A stretch of DNA of 64,000 nt from Escherichia phage REP8, in sequence record OQ174507.1; one strand, given 5' to 3'. Shown in pieces: positions 18,338-37,532 of this stretch. How positions within the stretch are numbered: position 1 is the stretch's first letter; every line of letters starts with the position of its first letter. The notes beneath the pieces were generated by a model. It was not told where the DNA came from, did no database searches, and was given only the letters and a program-made list of their open reading frames with translations. A program made the translations under genes and the position numbers.

Positions 18338-18388
18338 AAGCCCTCCTATACAAGATATTGTATAAGGTACTCTTCCATGAGCACCTTG

Positions 18389-18925
18389 TCAACTTAGTTT
18401 TGCAAACTCTCCGTGGAGTTTCATAGCAGCTTCACAGTAAGCTTTATGGGCTTCTTCAGGGGTGTCATGGTGACCTAAAAACATCTTCTTACCTTTATAA
18501 CTTATCTGTGCGACCCACTTACCAGACTTCTTCTTAAGACTTACACCCTTGTACCCAGATTTATTGGTGACTGGTTTGCCTTTATTCCAAGCACTTTGAA
18601 AGTCATCTGCTTCCCTTAAGTTTACAATCCTGTTGTCAAGTGAGTCTCCGTTGATATGGTCAATGATACCTTTTGGCATCTTGCCATACACGTAAAGCCA
18701 TGCGAGTCTGTGTGCTTTATGTGCTTTCTTGTCAAAATAGATACTAATCTGTTTATGACCACTTGAATCAGTCTGGATATTACCTGCCACCTTTCCTGCA
18801 TAATTACTGTTAAAAACACTAACAGCTCTTGATTTACCTTCTCTGCGAAGCCAAGTAAAGACCCCTGTTTCGGGGTCATAGTGTAGTAGCTCCTTTAAAC
18901 GTTTTTGTGAAATAAAATCCATCAA
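18389..18925 (-). CDS. HNH homing endonuclease with AP2-like DNA-binding domain
   Basis: HINGDSLDNRIVNLR HNH motif plus YKGVSLKKKSGKWVAQISYKGKKMFLGHHDTPEEAHKAY AP2-like segment; starts immediately after the polymerase stop codon. Confidence 0.65.
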   Translation of the reverse strand: MMDFISQKRLKELLHYDPETGVFTWLRREGKSRAVSVFNSNYAGKVAGNIQTDSSGHKQISIYFDKKAHKAHRLAWLYVYGKMPKGIIDHINGDSLDNRIVNLREADDFQSAWNKGKPVTNKSGYKGVSLKKKSGKWVAQISYKGKKMFLGHHDTPEEAHKAYCEAAMKLHGEFAKLS

Positions 18926-19482
18926 TCAATGTACCTCATACCAACTCTTACCAACCTTTGCTGTACCAGTTACAAGTGTTTCTTTCTTCAAACCTAAGTT
19001 TTTTGAAGCTTGCCCATACATCCAGTCAGCAATTGCTTTCATATCATGTGTCATATTCTCTGGGCATTCCCAACTATTTTCGTCGTGATATGCCAGAAGT
19101 AGTCTTGCTCCGATAGCTGGTTTTCGAGCATTCAGTTTTGTCAGGCCATCTTCACAGGCTTTTCTTGCTGCTAGGTTGATGGCCTCATTCTGAATCTGTG
19201 CTTCCGAACTCATCAGGAGGTAGTTCAGTAGTTTATGTGGAGATTTGCACCATATCCATGCTCCAGCGACCCTGATATAACCACCCTTAGCAATTGAAGA
19301 ATTCTTCCCAAAAACCTCTTCCAGAGCCTTTTTAGACGCCTTAAAATCGGCTTCTAAGCTATCAAGTAAACTCTTAATCTTCGGTAGACGCATATAGTAA
19401 GTCTGCTTAGTCAATGCACCTTCCTCTGTAGAAGCTGCCTTAATGGTTTTGGCAAACTTCTCATCACCTGCACCGAACAATA
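18926..19482 (-). CDS. DNA polymerase (family A), exon 2 (C-terminal part)
   Basis: FGAGDEK (motif B continuation), LLLAYHDE (motif C), C-terminal ...WYEVH ending typical of Pol A. Confidence 0.65.
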
Positions 19483-19750
19483 CATCTGGTCAATACACTC
19501 GCAAGGTGTACCAGTTCTCTTATGAACTTCTCCGCATTTCTACGGAGTGTCGGACTATATCACGTAGTAGTAATACTACCGTTGCACTTGGGAATGGTCA
19601 TTAGCTTACCACCCTACTCTACTCAGTTCATACATTAAGTATGCTTTTCGATAGTCTCTGAACGTTCCTCTCAAGAGGCTTCGCTGCTGATTACCGTATC
19701 TTCTCAGACTTAGGCTTCCAGCAATTCACAACGTTTTACATGCGCCACTG
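19483..19750 (-). ncRNA. putative group I self-splicing intron in DNA polymerase gene (boundaries inferred, +/- a few nt)
   Basis: 268-nt ORF-less insertion inside Pol A motif B; minus-strand R-like GTTCAGAGACTATCG (19664-19649) and S-like GATATAGTCC (19564-19550); 5' exon ends in U, insertion ends in G; joining restores KNGIYALLFGAGDEK. Confidence 0.55.
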
Positions 19751-21923
19751 ACGCATAAATGCCATTTTTGGCTTTCTTACGACCTTTTGTAATCTCGTGG
19801 AGAAGTTCCTCATCCTGTGTCTCCCTGCAACGAACAATATCCTCTTCTTTGTTAAGACCAAAGTAAATACTGTTCAGTGTATGCGCATCAGTCCCTGTGT
19901 AGACTTCATAGAGGTCGTTCTCAGCATCATAACGAAGATACTTATCAGTTTCTGGATTAAGATACTTATCGAGATGCTTGCAATAGTATCTGCCATCTTC
20001 TTGCTTAGTGAACTCTACTGACTCTTTACCCTCAGTTACCGCTTTGGTGAACTCTTTATCACCCATAAAGTTACAAAGAAGAACAAGCTGTGCAGAGTTC
20101 TGGTCAACTGAAACGATATTAGTCCCTTCCTCGCAAATCCAAACCTCCCTCATAGGCGCTCCATAGACAGCAGCACCAGACGGTACGTTTACAATACCAT
20201 ATTGTGTCATACGTCCAGTTGAAGTACCAAACACCATTGCACCAGCACTAAGGCGACCATCAGGACGAATCTGGTTCAACCAACCTTTTTCATCATCCTT
20301 TGAGTTCTCAATAGTTCTGCGTCGGTGCATCAAAGTATAGTACTTAGCAATCTTCTGTCCAAGCTCACCTTCAATCGTGTCATAAGATGATTCAGTAAGT
20401 TTTGGTGAAGTACGGATTAAGCAAGGCTCAAGCAAATCTGTGTATTTCTTCACAGACCAGTTATGTTCAATGTACTGTACACCTTCATGCTCAACATAGC
20501 TCAAACCACACCGCTCAACCATTTCCTGCCACTTAGGATGCTTTGTAATCATCTTTTTATTGTCTTTGAAACGACAAACTTTAACAGGGCGACCATCTGA
20601 GTCTTTCTTGTAGTTCCAGTCATCTGGAATCCAACCAACTGATTTCAAGTAGTCTTTAACAACTGCTACCTGAGTCATACGAGAAACTTCAAACTCAATT
20701 GGTGTATACGGTGCATCAATCAAACCTGTGTAGCGACTCGACTCAAGCTCAAAGTGGTTAACAACGTGGCTGTTATAGTACTTCACAGTTTTGACTGTTT
20801 TTACTGGCTTCCAGTCTTTGCATTTCTTACCAATCTTTGCGTTCAACTCATTGCAAATTGCACGAGCATCCTTCATTGCTACAAAACCTTCTTTGTACTC
20901 TTCACCAGTTACAGAGTTGGTTGGTGTATAGCAATTCCGCTTTTCAATGTTAAAAATCTTTGTAGTTGGCTTACCAAATGGCTTGATTTCATATGTCTGC
21001 ATCTCACCGTTACGTACCTGTTGACGATACTTTGTCTTAGGGTACTTGGTAATTCTCTTCAGTCCATCTGCATGACCAAATGCTTCAACATACTCATTCC
21101 AAGCTTTTGCAAACTCTTCTCCAGTGACTTTACCTTTGGTCTTAATAGTTGGAGGTAGATGTGGTTCAACCTCTGAAGCAAGCTCATTAGTCAACTTGTC
21201 AAGTTCCTTTACATGGAACTCCATAAGTTCTTTATCAGCTTTCCAGCCATTGATAGCTTGTTGACTCATCCAGAAAGATGTTTCTTTAGCTCGCATGTAG
21301 GTTTCATAGGTGTCTACGCCACACTTCTTTAGCTTCAGATATTCATTATCCAATGCACGTTTAGTTTTGGCGTTGATACGGATATCTTCTACAACACGAG
21401 TGAAGATTTCTGCATTCCACACACCCCAATGTTCAATCTCTGGTTTACGAACACCAACACGAGCACCCCATGCAGCCAAGCCATGAGCACCTTTATAACC
21501 CTTTGGAGTTGGCCTATCCATCCACTGAACACGAGACTGGATAAGAGAATCCTGAAAGAAATTACTCCACGGTTTACACTTTGGATTATCAAAGTTCCAT
21601 AAATCAGGTGCAATGTGATTGAAAACCCACCAGTCATAACCGAGACCGTTATGGATGCAAAGACGTTTTGCCTTTAACGCAAATTCAACACCTTCACGTA
21701 AACCACCCTTGATGTACTTAGTGTACTTGTGACCGAGGATAGGTTCATCTGTAAAGACCCATACAGGTGGCTCTTCATCGTCAGATTTATAGTCTGCGAA
21801 AGCCATTACGTGCACTTTAGTGAACTCAAGAAGTAAACCATCAGTTTCTGTATCACCAACTAAATGTAAGTTTTTAAAATCTACGTTTTCCATTTTTACT
21901 CCCTCTAAAATCATTAACCTCAT
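19751..21923 (-). CDS. DNA polymerase (family A, T7-like), exon 1 with 3'-5' exonuclease domain
   Basis: DTETDG Exo I motif; VSVDQNSAQLVLL motif A; RKKAKNGIY start of motif B; the ORF then reads into the insertion for 12 codons before a stop. Confidence 0.7.
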
Positions 21924-35071: not shown

Positions 35072-36268
35072 ATGAACAAAGTACAGATTATTAAAAAGAA
35101 TGGCTCACTCGAAGAACCTGATATCAAAAAAGTTTTAACAGCAGTCACAAAGTCAGCTAATAGGGTTGGGTATAAAGAACTCCCGCCAGATGTTACCCAA
35201 GCTCTTGAGTCAGCATTTATGAGGGTTCTGGTAAAATCCACTAAGCAGAATAATTTACTCGTTTCAGTAAATGATATTCACAGTATTGTTGAGGGTGCTT
35301 TGGCAGAAGTCAATCACGAGATTTATGAGTCTTACTCAACATATAGAAATTACCGTAAAGAGGTTGCTCAAAACTGGGATGAACTCTACCAGAAGACTAA
35401 AGATACACTCTTCTTAGGTGACCGTGAAAATGCTAATTTTGACAGCAGTTTAATTTCTACGAAAGGTTCAATTATCCGTGGTTACCTGACTAAAGAAATC
35501 TTTAAACAGTATCATCTAACACCAGAGGAACTTGAAGCCATTGAGAAAGGCTTTGTCTATATCCATGATTTAAGAGACCTGATTTTTGGTGGTATTAACT
35601 GTTGCCTGTTTGACATTGGTAAAGTACTAAAAGGTGGCTTTGAAATGTCCGGCATTGAGTACTGTGAACCTAAATCTGTACTGTCAGCGTTGCAGGTTAT
35701 TGGTGACGTAGTACTTTCAGCAACTGCACAGCAATTTGGTGGTTTTACTTTAGCAGAGATTGATAAGGTACTTGTACCGTATGCGAAGAAGTCTCTACGC
35801 TATCATGCTGAGAAAGCATCATCTTATGGTATCCCTAAAGAGCATTACCACAATTATGTCATGGAGCAGCTACAGATTGAACTGACTCAAGGTTTCCAGT
35901 CGCTTGAAATGAAACTAAACACTGTACCTTGTAGTCGTGGGGATTTTGCATTTACAACTTTGACATTCGGGTTACTTGACTCAGACATGTCTAATGAAGA
36001 CAACCGACTGCAATACATGATTGCAAGTACTCTCCTAGATGTTCGTATGAATGGACAAGGTAAGAGTAAGAAGCCTGTTGTATTCCCTAAACTGGTTTAT
36101 ATTTATGACCAGAAGAGACATAATGAGAATATCTGTCAAGGCCACCTGTACAGTAAAGCTATAGAGTGTTGCTCTAAAGCGATGTATCCAGATTTCTTAA
36201 GTGTATCTGGTCATGGTGCTGTAGCAGAAGCTTTTGAGCGTTCTGGTAAGGTTATTTCACCGATGGGT
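35072..36268 (+). CDS. nrdD: anaerobic ribonucleotide reductase, exon 1
   Basis: ORF ends ...VISPMG then TAA; continuation found in frame at 36585. Confidence 0.7.
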
Positions 36269-36584
36269 TAACAAGCTCTATAGCTCATCTAAAACGTGCC
36301 TAAACAGGGAAACTCTACAGATGTAGACAATCCTGTGCTAAATGATGTACGATGTAAGAAACTATACAACATAGGGGTCTTACATGCCAAATAACTTCGA
36401 ATATGAGTTTGGATACATCTAAATGCCGAACGACTAACCGTGATGAATGTAGCGGTGTAGGGTCAAGCGACTCGAAATGGTACGCTACTTAGAAATAAGT
36501 AGAAGATATAGTCTGGACTTACTGGCGACAGTAAGCAGCTTGAATAAAGCGGGGTAAGCGTAGCGAACTTACCTGAACAACAAG
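36269..36584 (+). ncRNA. putative group I self-splicing intron in nrdD
   Basis: 316-nt ORF-less insertion; 5' exon ends in U, insertion ends in G; S-like AAGATATAGTCTGG (36503-36516) and R-like CGAACGACTAACC (36428-36440); downstream frame encodes CRAFLSPYHNEDGEEFYVGRANIGAVSLNLP. Confidence 0.55.
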
Positions 36585-37532
36585 TGTAGAGCGTTTTTAT
36601 CACCATACCATAACGAAGATGGTGAAGAGTTTTATGTAGGTCGTGCTAACATTGGTGCTGTATCTTTGAACTTACCAATGATTTACCAGTACTCTAAAGA
36701 GAATGGTTTAGATTTCTGGAAAGAGCTTGATAAGTACCTAGAAATGATTCGCAGCTTCCACAAGAAACGCTACGAAATGATTGCTAATATGCCAGCAAGT
36801 TCTAACCCTCTTGCATTCACACAAGGTGGTCTGTACAAAGGGACTAAGAAACCTACTGACAAGGTTGGTTGGGATATCGTGAAGTCCTTCACAGCTTCTT
36901 TTGGGGTTACTGCGCTTGATGAGCTATCTGTTCTTGCTGAAGGTAAACGACTTCATGAAGTTGGAAGCTGTAGTTTTGCATACGATGTTCTGGAATACAT
37001 CAACATGAAAACTGAAGAGTTTAAGAACGAAGATGGCTTCTTGTATGCGGTATATGGCACTCCAGCAGAATCACTTTGCGGAACTCAGCTAAAACAGTTC
37101 AGAGATATGTTTGGCGTTATTAAAGGTGTCTCTGACAAGGAATACTTTACAAACAGTTTCCATATGAATGTTGCAGCAGACATTACACCATTTGAGAAGC
37201 AGGACTTAGAAGAACCCTTCTTTCATATCTGTAGAGGCGGCAGAATCCAGTATGTAAGGGTAGCTAATCCAGAAAACTTATCAGCACTTAAAAGTTGTAT
37301 TACAAGAGGGATGTTGAAAGGTTTCTATCAGGGACTTAACTTTGACTTAGCAATCTGTGAACATTGTGGTAACAGACCAAAGGCTGATGTTGAAGAATGT
37401 GAGGTTTGCCATTCACACGATATCTCTGTGATTAACAGGGTGTGCGGGTACTTGTCATTCACAAAAATTAAAGGTCAGTCTCGAATGAATGACGCTAAGA
37501 TGGCAGAAATTAAGGATAGAGTATCTATGTAA
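36585..37532 (+). CDS. nrdD: anaerobic ribonucleotide reductase, exon 2 (glycyl-radical domain)
   Basis: C-terminal Cys cluster CEHCGN...CEVC and glycyl-radical motif RVCGYLS. Confidence 0.75.
   Translation, partial: CRAFLSPYHNEDGEEFYVGRANIGAVSLNLPMIYQYSKENGLDFWKELDKYLEMIRSFHKKRYEMIANMPASSNPLAFTQGGLYKGTKKPTDKVGWDIVKSFTASFGVTALDELSVLAEGKRLHEVGSCSFAYDVLEYINMKTEEFKNEDGFLYAVYGTPAESLCGTQLKQFRDMFGVIKGVSDKEYFTNSFHMNVAADITPFEKQDLEEPFFHICRGGRIQYVRVANPENLSALKSCITRGMLKGFYQGLNFDLAICEHCGNRPKADVEECEVCHSHDISVINRVCGYLSFTKIKGQSRMNDAKMAEIKDRVSM

Follow-up and report, generated by a model that had tools for sequence, protein, structure and literature searches.

The 64,000-nucleotide (nt) stretch of the Escherichia phage REP8 genome analyzed here (OQ174507.1; hereafter the window) carries, on its minus strand at 18389..18925, a gene for an HNH endonuclease with an AP2 DNA-binding domain, an allele that we call type A or the REP9 allele. 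The gene directly follows a family-A DNA polymerase gene that is interrupted by a group I intron without an open reading frame (ORF). The HNH-AP2 ORF can be regarded with near certainty as a homing endonuclease cassette of the free-standing kind, in which an I-HmuI-like HNH module is fused to an AP2 domain. We give just short of an even chance to a partnership between this nuclease and the intron, that is, to collaborative homing with predicted cleavage of polymerase motif B in its uninterrupted form, the S-type site described below.

The evidence comes mainly from a census of ~253 related genomes, made by junction-specific BLAST against 50,697 GenBank phage records (IMG/VR gave only 16 loci), in which the slot behind the polymerase gene was empty in 99 records and occupied by an HNH-AP2 gene in 154. 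The ORF-less 268-nt intron was found in 44 records (complete list), and all 44 had an occupied slot, with 31 A, 8 B, 2 C, and 3 D alleles; the 31 were taken from the list of type-A genomes and the rest from fetched loci, the B allele of phiWec174 being assigned from near-identical relatives. Intronless polymerases with a recoded insertion site (R-type) were also accompanied by an occupied slot in 28 of 28 records, the allele type being assigned in all but 11, which were scored as occupied only. An occupied slot thus went with the ORF-less intron or the R-type site in 72/72 records, against 82/181 of the other records.

The type-A allele itself (41 records, ≥95% identity) lay next to an ORF-less intron in 31 genomes and next to an R-type site in 10; none of the 41 combined it with an S-type site or with an intron that contains an ORF. 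Allele B, which occupies the same slot, occurs with S-type and R-type sites and with both the ORF-less and the ORF-containing intron, so proximity alone does not force the restriction seen for type A. As read from these genome sequences, the pattern is what collaborative homing predicts; it fits that mechanism but does not prove it.

An HNH-AP2 gene abuts the polymerase gene

The ORF, supported by Pfam, the GenBank annotation, and an AlphaFold2 model, encodes 178 amino acids (aa) from a TTG at 18925 or 177 aa from an ATG at 18922, the start used in GenBank, and ends with a stop codon at 18389-18391. The 5.5 kb tested are 100% identical to Escherichia phage REP9 (OQ174508, Felixounavirus), whose counterpart is already annotated as "HNH endonuclease" (WBY53821.1). 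The polymerase stop codon TGA lies at 18926-18928, the HNH-AP2 start 0 nt (TTG) or 3 nt (ATG) beyond it, and a Shine-Dalgarno-like GAGGT within the final polymerase codons.

An earlier note, made from the sequence without database searches, had described the gene as that of a free-standing HNH-AP2 endonuclease directly next to a polymerase with an intron, and had named a profile search as a possible refutation. The search detected both domains above their cut-offs, HNH_3 (PF13392) with an E value of 9.1e-15 (54.5 bits, cut-off 24.8) and AP2 (PF00847) with an E value of 8.1e-13 (48.9 bits, cut-off 33.3), and the description stands. The HNH_3 match spans residues 70-105 of the 178-aa ORF (18611..18718, minus strand) and holds the His-Me finger catalytic core with the motif DH...N..NLR...N. 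The AP2 domain spans residues 123-172 (18410..18559, minus strand) and was recovered by Pfam, by sequence matches in the PDB, and by Foldseek.

Residues D88, H89, N101, L102, R103, and N113 are present and are invariant in an alignment of 41 homologues; in the same alignment, a less conserved Asn three residues before the invariant one is a Ser in the type-A protein. Loss of the metal-binding Asn, which the Ser in "FQSAWN" might suggest, was rejected, as the family alignment places the invariant Asn at N113, which is present. From the domain identity and the intact predicted active site, we infer that the type-A protein would have nuclease activity.

The AlphaFold2 model of the protein has a mean predicted local distance difference test score (pLDDT) of 94.4. 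By sequence, its AP2 part resembles plant AP2/ERF domains of solved structure in the PDB (WRI1, E value 9e-07; ERF096, TEM1, and AtERF1), and it superposes on the AP2 domains of AtERF1 and TEM1 with a root-mean-square deviation of 1.1-1.4 Å over 55-57 residues (Foldseek). The best solved structural match to the whole model was I-HmuI (1u3e; Foldseek probability 1.0, E value 7.9e-04). The global template modeling (TM) score to I-HmuI was only 0.42, because the domain arrangement differs, and the sequence identity was 18%.

A search of 5.8 billion proteins returned 7768 homologues at an E value ≤1e-05, nearly all of them HNH_3 proteins with or without AP2. The ratio of nonsynonymous to synonymous substitution rates (dN/dS) between type A and its sister alleles was 0.12-0.20, which places the type-A protein under purifying selection. 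A terminator-like GC hairpin with a T run was noticed inside the HNH gene (18860-18877, minus strand), overlapping the segment that codes for the conserved YDPETGVFTW; it is probably a coincidence of the coding sequence.

A group I intron without an ORF splits motif B of the polymerase

The polymerase gene consists of exon 1 (19751..21923, minus strand, starting at 21923, or at 21893 in GenBank), the intron (19483..19750, minus strand, 268 nt), and exon 2 (18926..19482, minus strand, 185 codons including a split Leu codon). Exon 1 was delimited from the ORF, Pfam, and the annotation, and exon 2 from the Pfam DNA_pol_A match and splice mapping. The intron scores 61.7 bits with Rfam RF00028 (gathering threshold 50), and its boundaries follow from comparison with intronless relatives and from restoration of the frame: its removal in silico restores a 909-aa polymerase, collinear with the intronless polymerases of HY02 and Felix O1. 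The earlier note's statement that the polymerase intron has no ORF was borne out by this mapping.

The 5′ exon ends in ...AUGCGU, and the intron starts with CAGUGGCGCAUG and ends in ...CCAGAUG with a terminal G; as read directly from the sequence, AUGCGU and GCGCAU can pair as P1, which puts a U.G at the 5′ splice site. The 268-nt intron, predicted to be self-splicing, is inserted inside motif B, between KNGIYA and LLFGAGDEK, where the T3/T7 equivalent of the motif is AKTFIYGFLYGAGDEK. The distance from the intron to the cassette, across exon 2, is 555 nt.

A 47-nt stretch of the intron core (~19649-19695) is shared at 93.6% identity with six ~240-kb jumbo phages of E. coli and Salmonella (EC001, JN03, Lh1B, SPLA3, SPLA5c, and 1252), a match that suggests a related group I intron in these otherwise unrelated phages. 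The window also contains a second ORF-less group I intron (36161-36535, plus strand; Rfam 55.4 bits), which interrupts nrdD, the gene for anaerobic ribonucleotide reductase, as is also the case in T4, and is flanked by ORFs at 35072-36271 and 36666-37532. No HNH-AP2 gene adjoins the nrdD intron, and REP9 has a single HNH-AP2 locus.

The slot is empty or holds one of at least four alleles

Sixteen IMG/VR loci and 25 GenBank loci formed the comparison set for the slot, and its junctions were compared in eight empty and eight occupied loci. The empty-slot junction after the polymerase stop reads CACTAA-TTAGTA-TTGACAAGG..., that is, the polymerase stop and TTAGTA are followed by TTGACA, and every HNH-AP2 allele has its stop codon inside the same TTGACA (junctions including those of loci L007-L012, L023, and L036). 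The TTGACA overlapping the HNH stop codon in the window (18387..18392, minus strand) is thus the right cassette boundary. The slot has precise limits, allows exchange of its content, and separates the end of the polymerase gene from the transcription unit that follows. A promoter is annotated at this junction in the related record AYO145A; a generic sigma-70 scan made no promoter call there.

At least four alleles (A, B, C, and D) occupy the slot, all of the HNH_3 plus AP2 type; the AP2 match of allele C, at 26.6 bits, lies below the Pfam cut-off of 33.3. Allele A is the REP9 type and has a sub-type A′ that is ~86% identical to it in nucleotides (88% in amino acids), allele B encodes 171 aa (Meda, VSe11), allele C 183-187 aa (LNA1), and allele D 167 aa (Felix O1). 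They are mutually ~35-50% identical except for the last ~25 residues, which are identical. Protein alignment, nucleotide junctions, and BLAST agree that the last ~75 nt of the gene (18389..18463, minus strand, encoding TPEEAHKAYCEAA.KLHGEFAKLS) are near-identical in all four. This segment is probably the right-hand recombination anchor for cassette exchange, and the pattern of alleles looks like exchange of cassettes via common flanks.

In a more distant relative, a contig of ERR8529448 (L046) with a polymerase of 66% aa identity and KNGIYCLLFGGGDEK as its motif B, this slot is occupied by an HNH-AP2 gene of 58% identity. The Felixounavirus polymerase-HNH region also recurs at 95-99% identity in MG065664 and MG065668 ("Campylobacter phage A132/A126") and in GU169904 ("Staphylococcus phage SA1"), which are probably mixed or contaminated assemblies.

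The earlier note had taken the polymerase locus for a hotspot of selfish elements and had proposed a presence/absence comparison across relatives, with conservation of the gene regardless of intron status as the alternative. The gene is missing from 99 of the ~253 relatives and its occurrence follows the state of the insertion site, contrary to that alternative. The locus is indeed such a hotspot.

These data also bear on whether the gene has been domesticated for a role other than homing, such as competitor exclusion, DNA processing, or AP2-mediated regulation. The purifying selection on type A would suit such a role, as would the use of AP2 as a sequence-specific DNA-binding domain by transcription factors and the coincidence of the cassette end with the promoter-like TTGACA. 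However, purifying selection is equally expected of an actively homing nuclease, and the gene is dispensable, as seen from the 99 empty-slot genomes and from the frameshifted type-A copies in the relatives D1-2, RPN213, IME338, and MBP4696116. Allelic turnover and the mosaicism of the flanking haplotypes are, moreover, hallmarks of a selfish nuclease gene, and we consider domestication very unlikely.

Intron forms and insertion-site haplotypes among relatives

The same intron, its core 96-99% identical, recurs in 41 records with a 160-aa ORF housed in one of its peripheral stems. This ORF matches Pfam Endonuclease_7 (E value 5.9e-20), and the EC6, JH2, and FSL SP-010 proteins have been listed as intron-encoded representatives of the family of nucleases with the EndoVII motif (PMC6083498). 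The slot was empty in at least 12 and occupied in at least 11 of these 41 records, counts that leave out 18 of them.

The intron of Salmonella phage S19cd (L028) is 310 nt long and still shows the two ends of the EndoVII-ORF insertion, the final codons of the ORF among them. Judged by these remnants, it is a clear deletion scar, indicating that an intron of this kind can lose its own nuclease gene. The 268-nt intron, in contrast, bears no deletion scar: its stem is closed by a tetraloop and shows a compensatory change, CCUCU/AGAGG, relative to the UCUCU/AGAGA of the ORF-bearing form.

Intronless polymerases have two main sequences at the insertion site. The S-type site, AATGGTATCTATGCAC followed across the insertion point by TGCTGTTCGGTGCAGGTGATGAG, was present in six of six sampled empty-slot intronless genomes and in some genomes with alleles B and C. 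The R-type site, AATGGCATCTACGCCC followed by TGTTATTTGGAGCCGGAGACGAG, is the recoded form found in the 28 records already mentioned (complete list), Felix O1 among them. Within the same haplotype, R-type and intron-bearing alleles are set apart by nine synonymous changes that fall in a 22-nt segment spanning the insertion site; the best pair shows no difference over the 210 nt that follow. The recoded patch was the densest 24-nt window of the 2.7-kb polymerase gene in four of five pairs.

The intronless site of phages phiSUSP1 and SUSP2 (L013 and L014) is S-like except for GCGT at the last four positions of the equivalent of exon 1. GCGT is the sequence that the intron requires for P1 pairing, and its presence in these two phages may be a trace of precise intron loss.

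The last ~1 kb of the polymerase gene, which begins ~420 nt upstream of the insertion site and runs to the stop codon, falls into two deep lineages, which we call "a" and "b". They are ~76% identical (24% divergence), with about 1.9-2.5 synonymous substitutions per synonymous site (dS), while the rest of the gene is 93-97% identical. Exon 2 identity is 94-95% in type-A genomes and 73-79% in empty-slot genomes, with exon 1 at 93-96%. Divergent sequence flanking the gene in this way is a mark of co-conversion or marker exclusion, as known for free-standing homing endonuclease genes. The "a" haplotype block accompanies the HNH cassette, and exon 2 in the window belongs to it. The flanking structure is mosaic, and recombinants between "a" and "b" exist. 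Locating the cut from the edges of conversion tracts was rejected, as the left edge ~420 nt upstream is an old boundary common to all "a" genomes whatever their allele.

Collaborative homing and competing explanations

Under collaborative homing, the enzyme would act in mixed infections, nicking or cutting the polymerase gene of a co-infecting relative at an uninterrupted S-type motif B. Copying of the donor's sequence during repair would start at the break and extend across exon 2 into the slot, and the nuclease gene and the ORF-less intron would hence be inherited together. A cut at the intron insertion site would make this strict collaborative homing, and a cut nearby would make it trans homing. 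The polymerase gene of the donor would be protected, as the intron divides its site or, where a carrier has no intron, the nine synonymous changes rewrite it. Both this cut position and the protection by intron or recoding are what we infer for type A.

The earlier note had already proposed a collaborative-homing arrangement, and its claim survives in part. The ORF-less intron lies by a free-standing nuclease gene in every one of its 44 records, but 10 of the 41 type-A genomes have no intron, and the nuclease-intron partnership is therefore not obligatory.

Several further points weigh against collaborative homing. With records treated as independent, Fisher tests gave p values from 1e-07 to 1e-20 across tests (for the ORF-less intron, 2e-11 when compared with all other records and 2e-07 when compared with ORF-containing introns), but the records are not phylogenetically independent and these values overstate the association; a conservative count based on ~7 distinct haplotype combinations gives p ~0.04. 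The A′ sub-type of SUSP1 and SUSP2 occurs with a near-S site, and an A-like allele of 75% identity, in a Logan contig of SRR5677825 (L045), stands behind a polymerase that has no intron and whose site is plainly S-type. Alleles B and C are likewise found together with S-type sites; the conversion tracts in those genomes cover no more than the final ~350 nt of the polymerase gene, a pattern from which the B and C enzymes would probably cut nearer the slot. The 24% divergence between "a" and "b" should itself suppress recombination between site and slot, and linkage over 555 nt can yield the same associations. Finally, the intron-encoded EndoVII-type nuclease is expected to cut the same site and could have selected the R-type recoding.

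Some of these observations would be accounted for by trans homing or hitch-hiking, in which an active enzyme cuts near the slot, while the recoded site and the ORF-less intron travel as mere passengers in long co-conversion tracts and have no protective effect against this enzyme. All four alleles home to one slot, B and C do so with S-type sites, the divergence of B and C genomes from empty-slot genomes starts only ~350 nt before the stop codon, and the A-like allele of the Logan contig stands by an S-type site. Precedents exist in T4, whose free-standing endonucleases co-convert up to ~2 kb; among them, MobE, like type A a free-standing HNH nuclease beside an intron, moves the neighboring immobile nrdB intron (defunct I-TevIII) by co-conversion, with a cut that is not at the intron insertion site (PMC2790892). 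Trans homing nevertheless leaves unexplained why type A is never found by an S-type site in its 41 records when B occurs with every site state. It also leaves unexplained the tight 22-nt synonymous patch at the insertion site of intronless carriers, unless that patch came from another nuclease. We regard this explanation as unlikely.

Linkage may also have been passive, the cassette and the intron being independent elements that arrived on one introgressed, diverged 3′ block, with the R-type site an immunity to the EndoVII-type nuclease and the ORF-less intron an immobile remnant. The old "a" boundary shared by all carriers and the dS of ~2 between the lineages are as expected from such an introgression, and S19cd gives a clear example of an intron that lost its ORF. 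The ORF-containing intron, furthermore, spreads alone into empty-slot genomes, the tracts of EC6 and Barry being centered on the insertion site, and nuclease-gene turnover has been proposed as the origin of such arrangements (Barth et al., PMC10448857). Yet linkage is not absolute, since site and slot have recombined in some genomes (EC6 and Barry; B, combined with all four site states; C, combined with the S-type site and with the intron), and the slot is still occupied in every record with an ORF-less intron or an R-type site. The clean tetraloop stem of the 268-nt intron, with its compensatory change and no scar, is also at odds with a remnant. Passive linkage seems to us quite improbable.

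Collaborative homing remains the explanation that we favor. A wider version of it, which we hold to be possible although on the unlikely side, is a two-site arms race in Felixounavirus: type-A (and perhaps D) enzymes would target uninterrupted motif B, genomes would escape through the intron or through the 22-nt rewrite, and competing alleles would swap via their common flanks.

Comparison with known systems

There are documented cases of a free-standing nuclease whose target is the insertion site of an ORF-less intron nearby (PMC3984707, PMC10448857, PMC2790892, PMC6083498), and HNH-AP2 nuclease genes often adjoin DNA polymerase genes, the figure for the related IPA-HNH class being 29% (PMC10448857). 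The closest parallel is T3/PhiI, in which an ORF-less intron in a family-A polymerase gene has a free-standing HNH gene directly downstream. There, the gene 5.3 HNH nuclease accompanies an ORF-less intron in DNA polymerase gene 5, and cleavage of the insertion site was demonstrated (Bonocora and Shub 2009, as described in PMC3984707, PMC10448857, and PMC2790892), whereas for type A it is predicted from the associations above. The catalytic domain of T3 gp5.3 is also HNH_3 (E value 4.6e-19), but the protein is 101 aa long, carries a zinc-binding loop, and lacks an AP2 domain. We rejected the type-A protein as a gp5.3 orthologue, given that the two share only HNH_3, with a pairwise E value of 0.006 over 28 residues, and that gp5.3 is without AP2.

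The T7-like phage Berlin also has an intron in motif B. That it is the same intron was rejected: the Berlin site lies 10 nt upstream, and only a 51-nt core stretch is shared, at 74.5% identity. If our interpretation holds, Felixounavirus would be an instance independent of T3/PhiI.

In cyanophage S-PM2, a free-standing nuclease gene, F-CphI, likewise stands by a gene with an ORF-less intron, psbA; the intron blocks self-cleavage, and F-CphI gives the psbA intron its mobility (Zeng, Bonocora and Shub 2009; PMC6083498). F-CphI differs from type A in belonging to the EndoVII-motif (DHHRN) family and not to HNH-AP2, and in Felixounavirus it is inside the intron of 41 relatives that an EndoVII-motif nuclease sits. 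I-HmuI of SPO1 is similar to type A as an HNH_3-type nuclease associated with a family-A polymerase gene, but it is intron-encoded and has a helix-turn-helix C-terminal domain where the type-A protein has AP2. The same two-domain architecture as in type A characterizes the HNH-AP2 homing endonuclease family of Magnani et al. 2004, as cited in PMC10448857.

For the genus itself, the Felix O1 genome paper of 2010 described six HNH genes and reported no introns (PMC3185647), which is consistent with the R-type intronless site of Felix O1. Our literature search found no paper linking HNH-AP2 genes to a polymerase intron in Felixounavirus.

Significance for Felixounavirus

The gene is already annotated and the class of mechanism is already known; what is described here is a new candidate case. 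To our knowledge, collaborative homing has been described for just two phage systems, T3/PhiI and S-PM2. If the REP9-type enzyme cuts motif B, Felixounavirus would join them as a third case, one that evolved independently and in which, for the first time, the DNA-binding module is of the AP2 type. In that event, the recoded allele would illustrate, from nature, how a nuclease can drive the synonymous rewriting of an essential polymerase motif.

About 250 sequenced and easily grown Felixounavirus isolates offer the empty and the occupied slot, four alleles, three intron states, and the recoded site. Should the two-site arms race prove true, a single genus would hold both an ORF-less intron served by its neighbor and a form of that intron that brings its own, unrelated nuclease of the EndoVII type. 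How mobile introns arose, by recruitment of a pre-adapted neighbor or by turnover of nuclease genes, would then be directly testable in existing isolates. These elements also explain the two-gene annotation of the polymerase and the mosaicism of the region in phages used for the biocontrol of Salmonella and E. coli.

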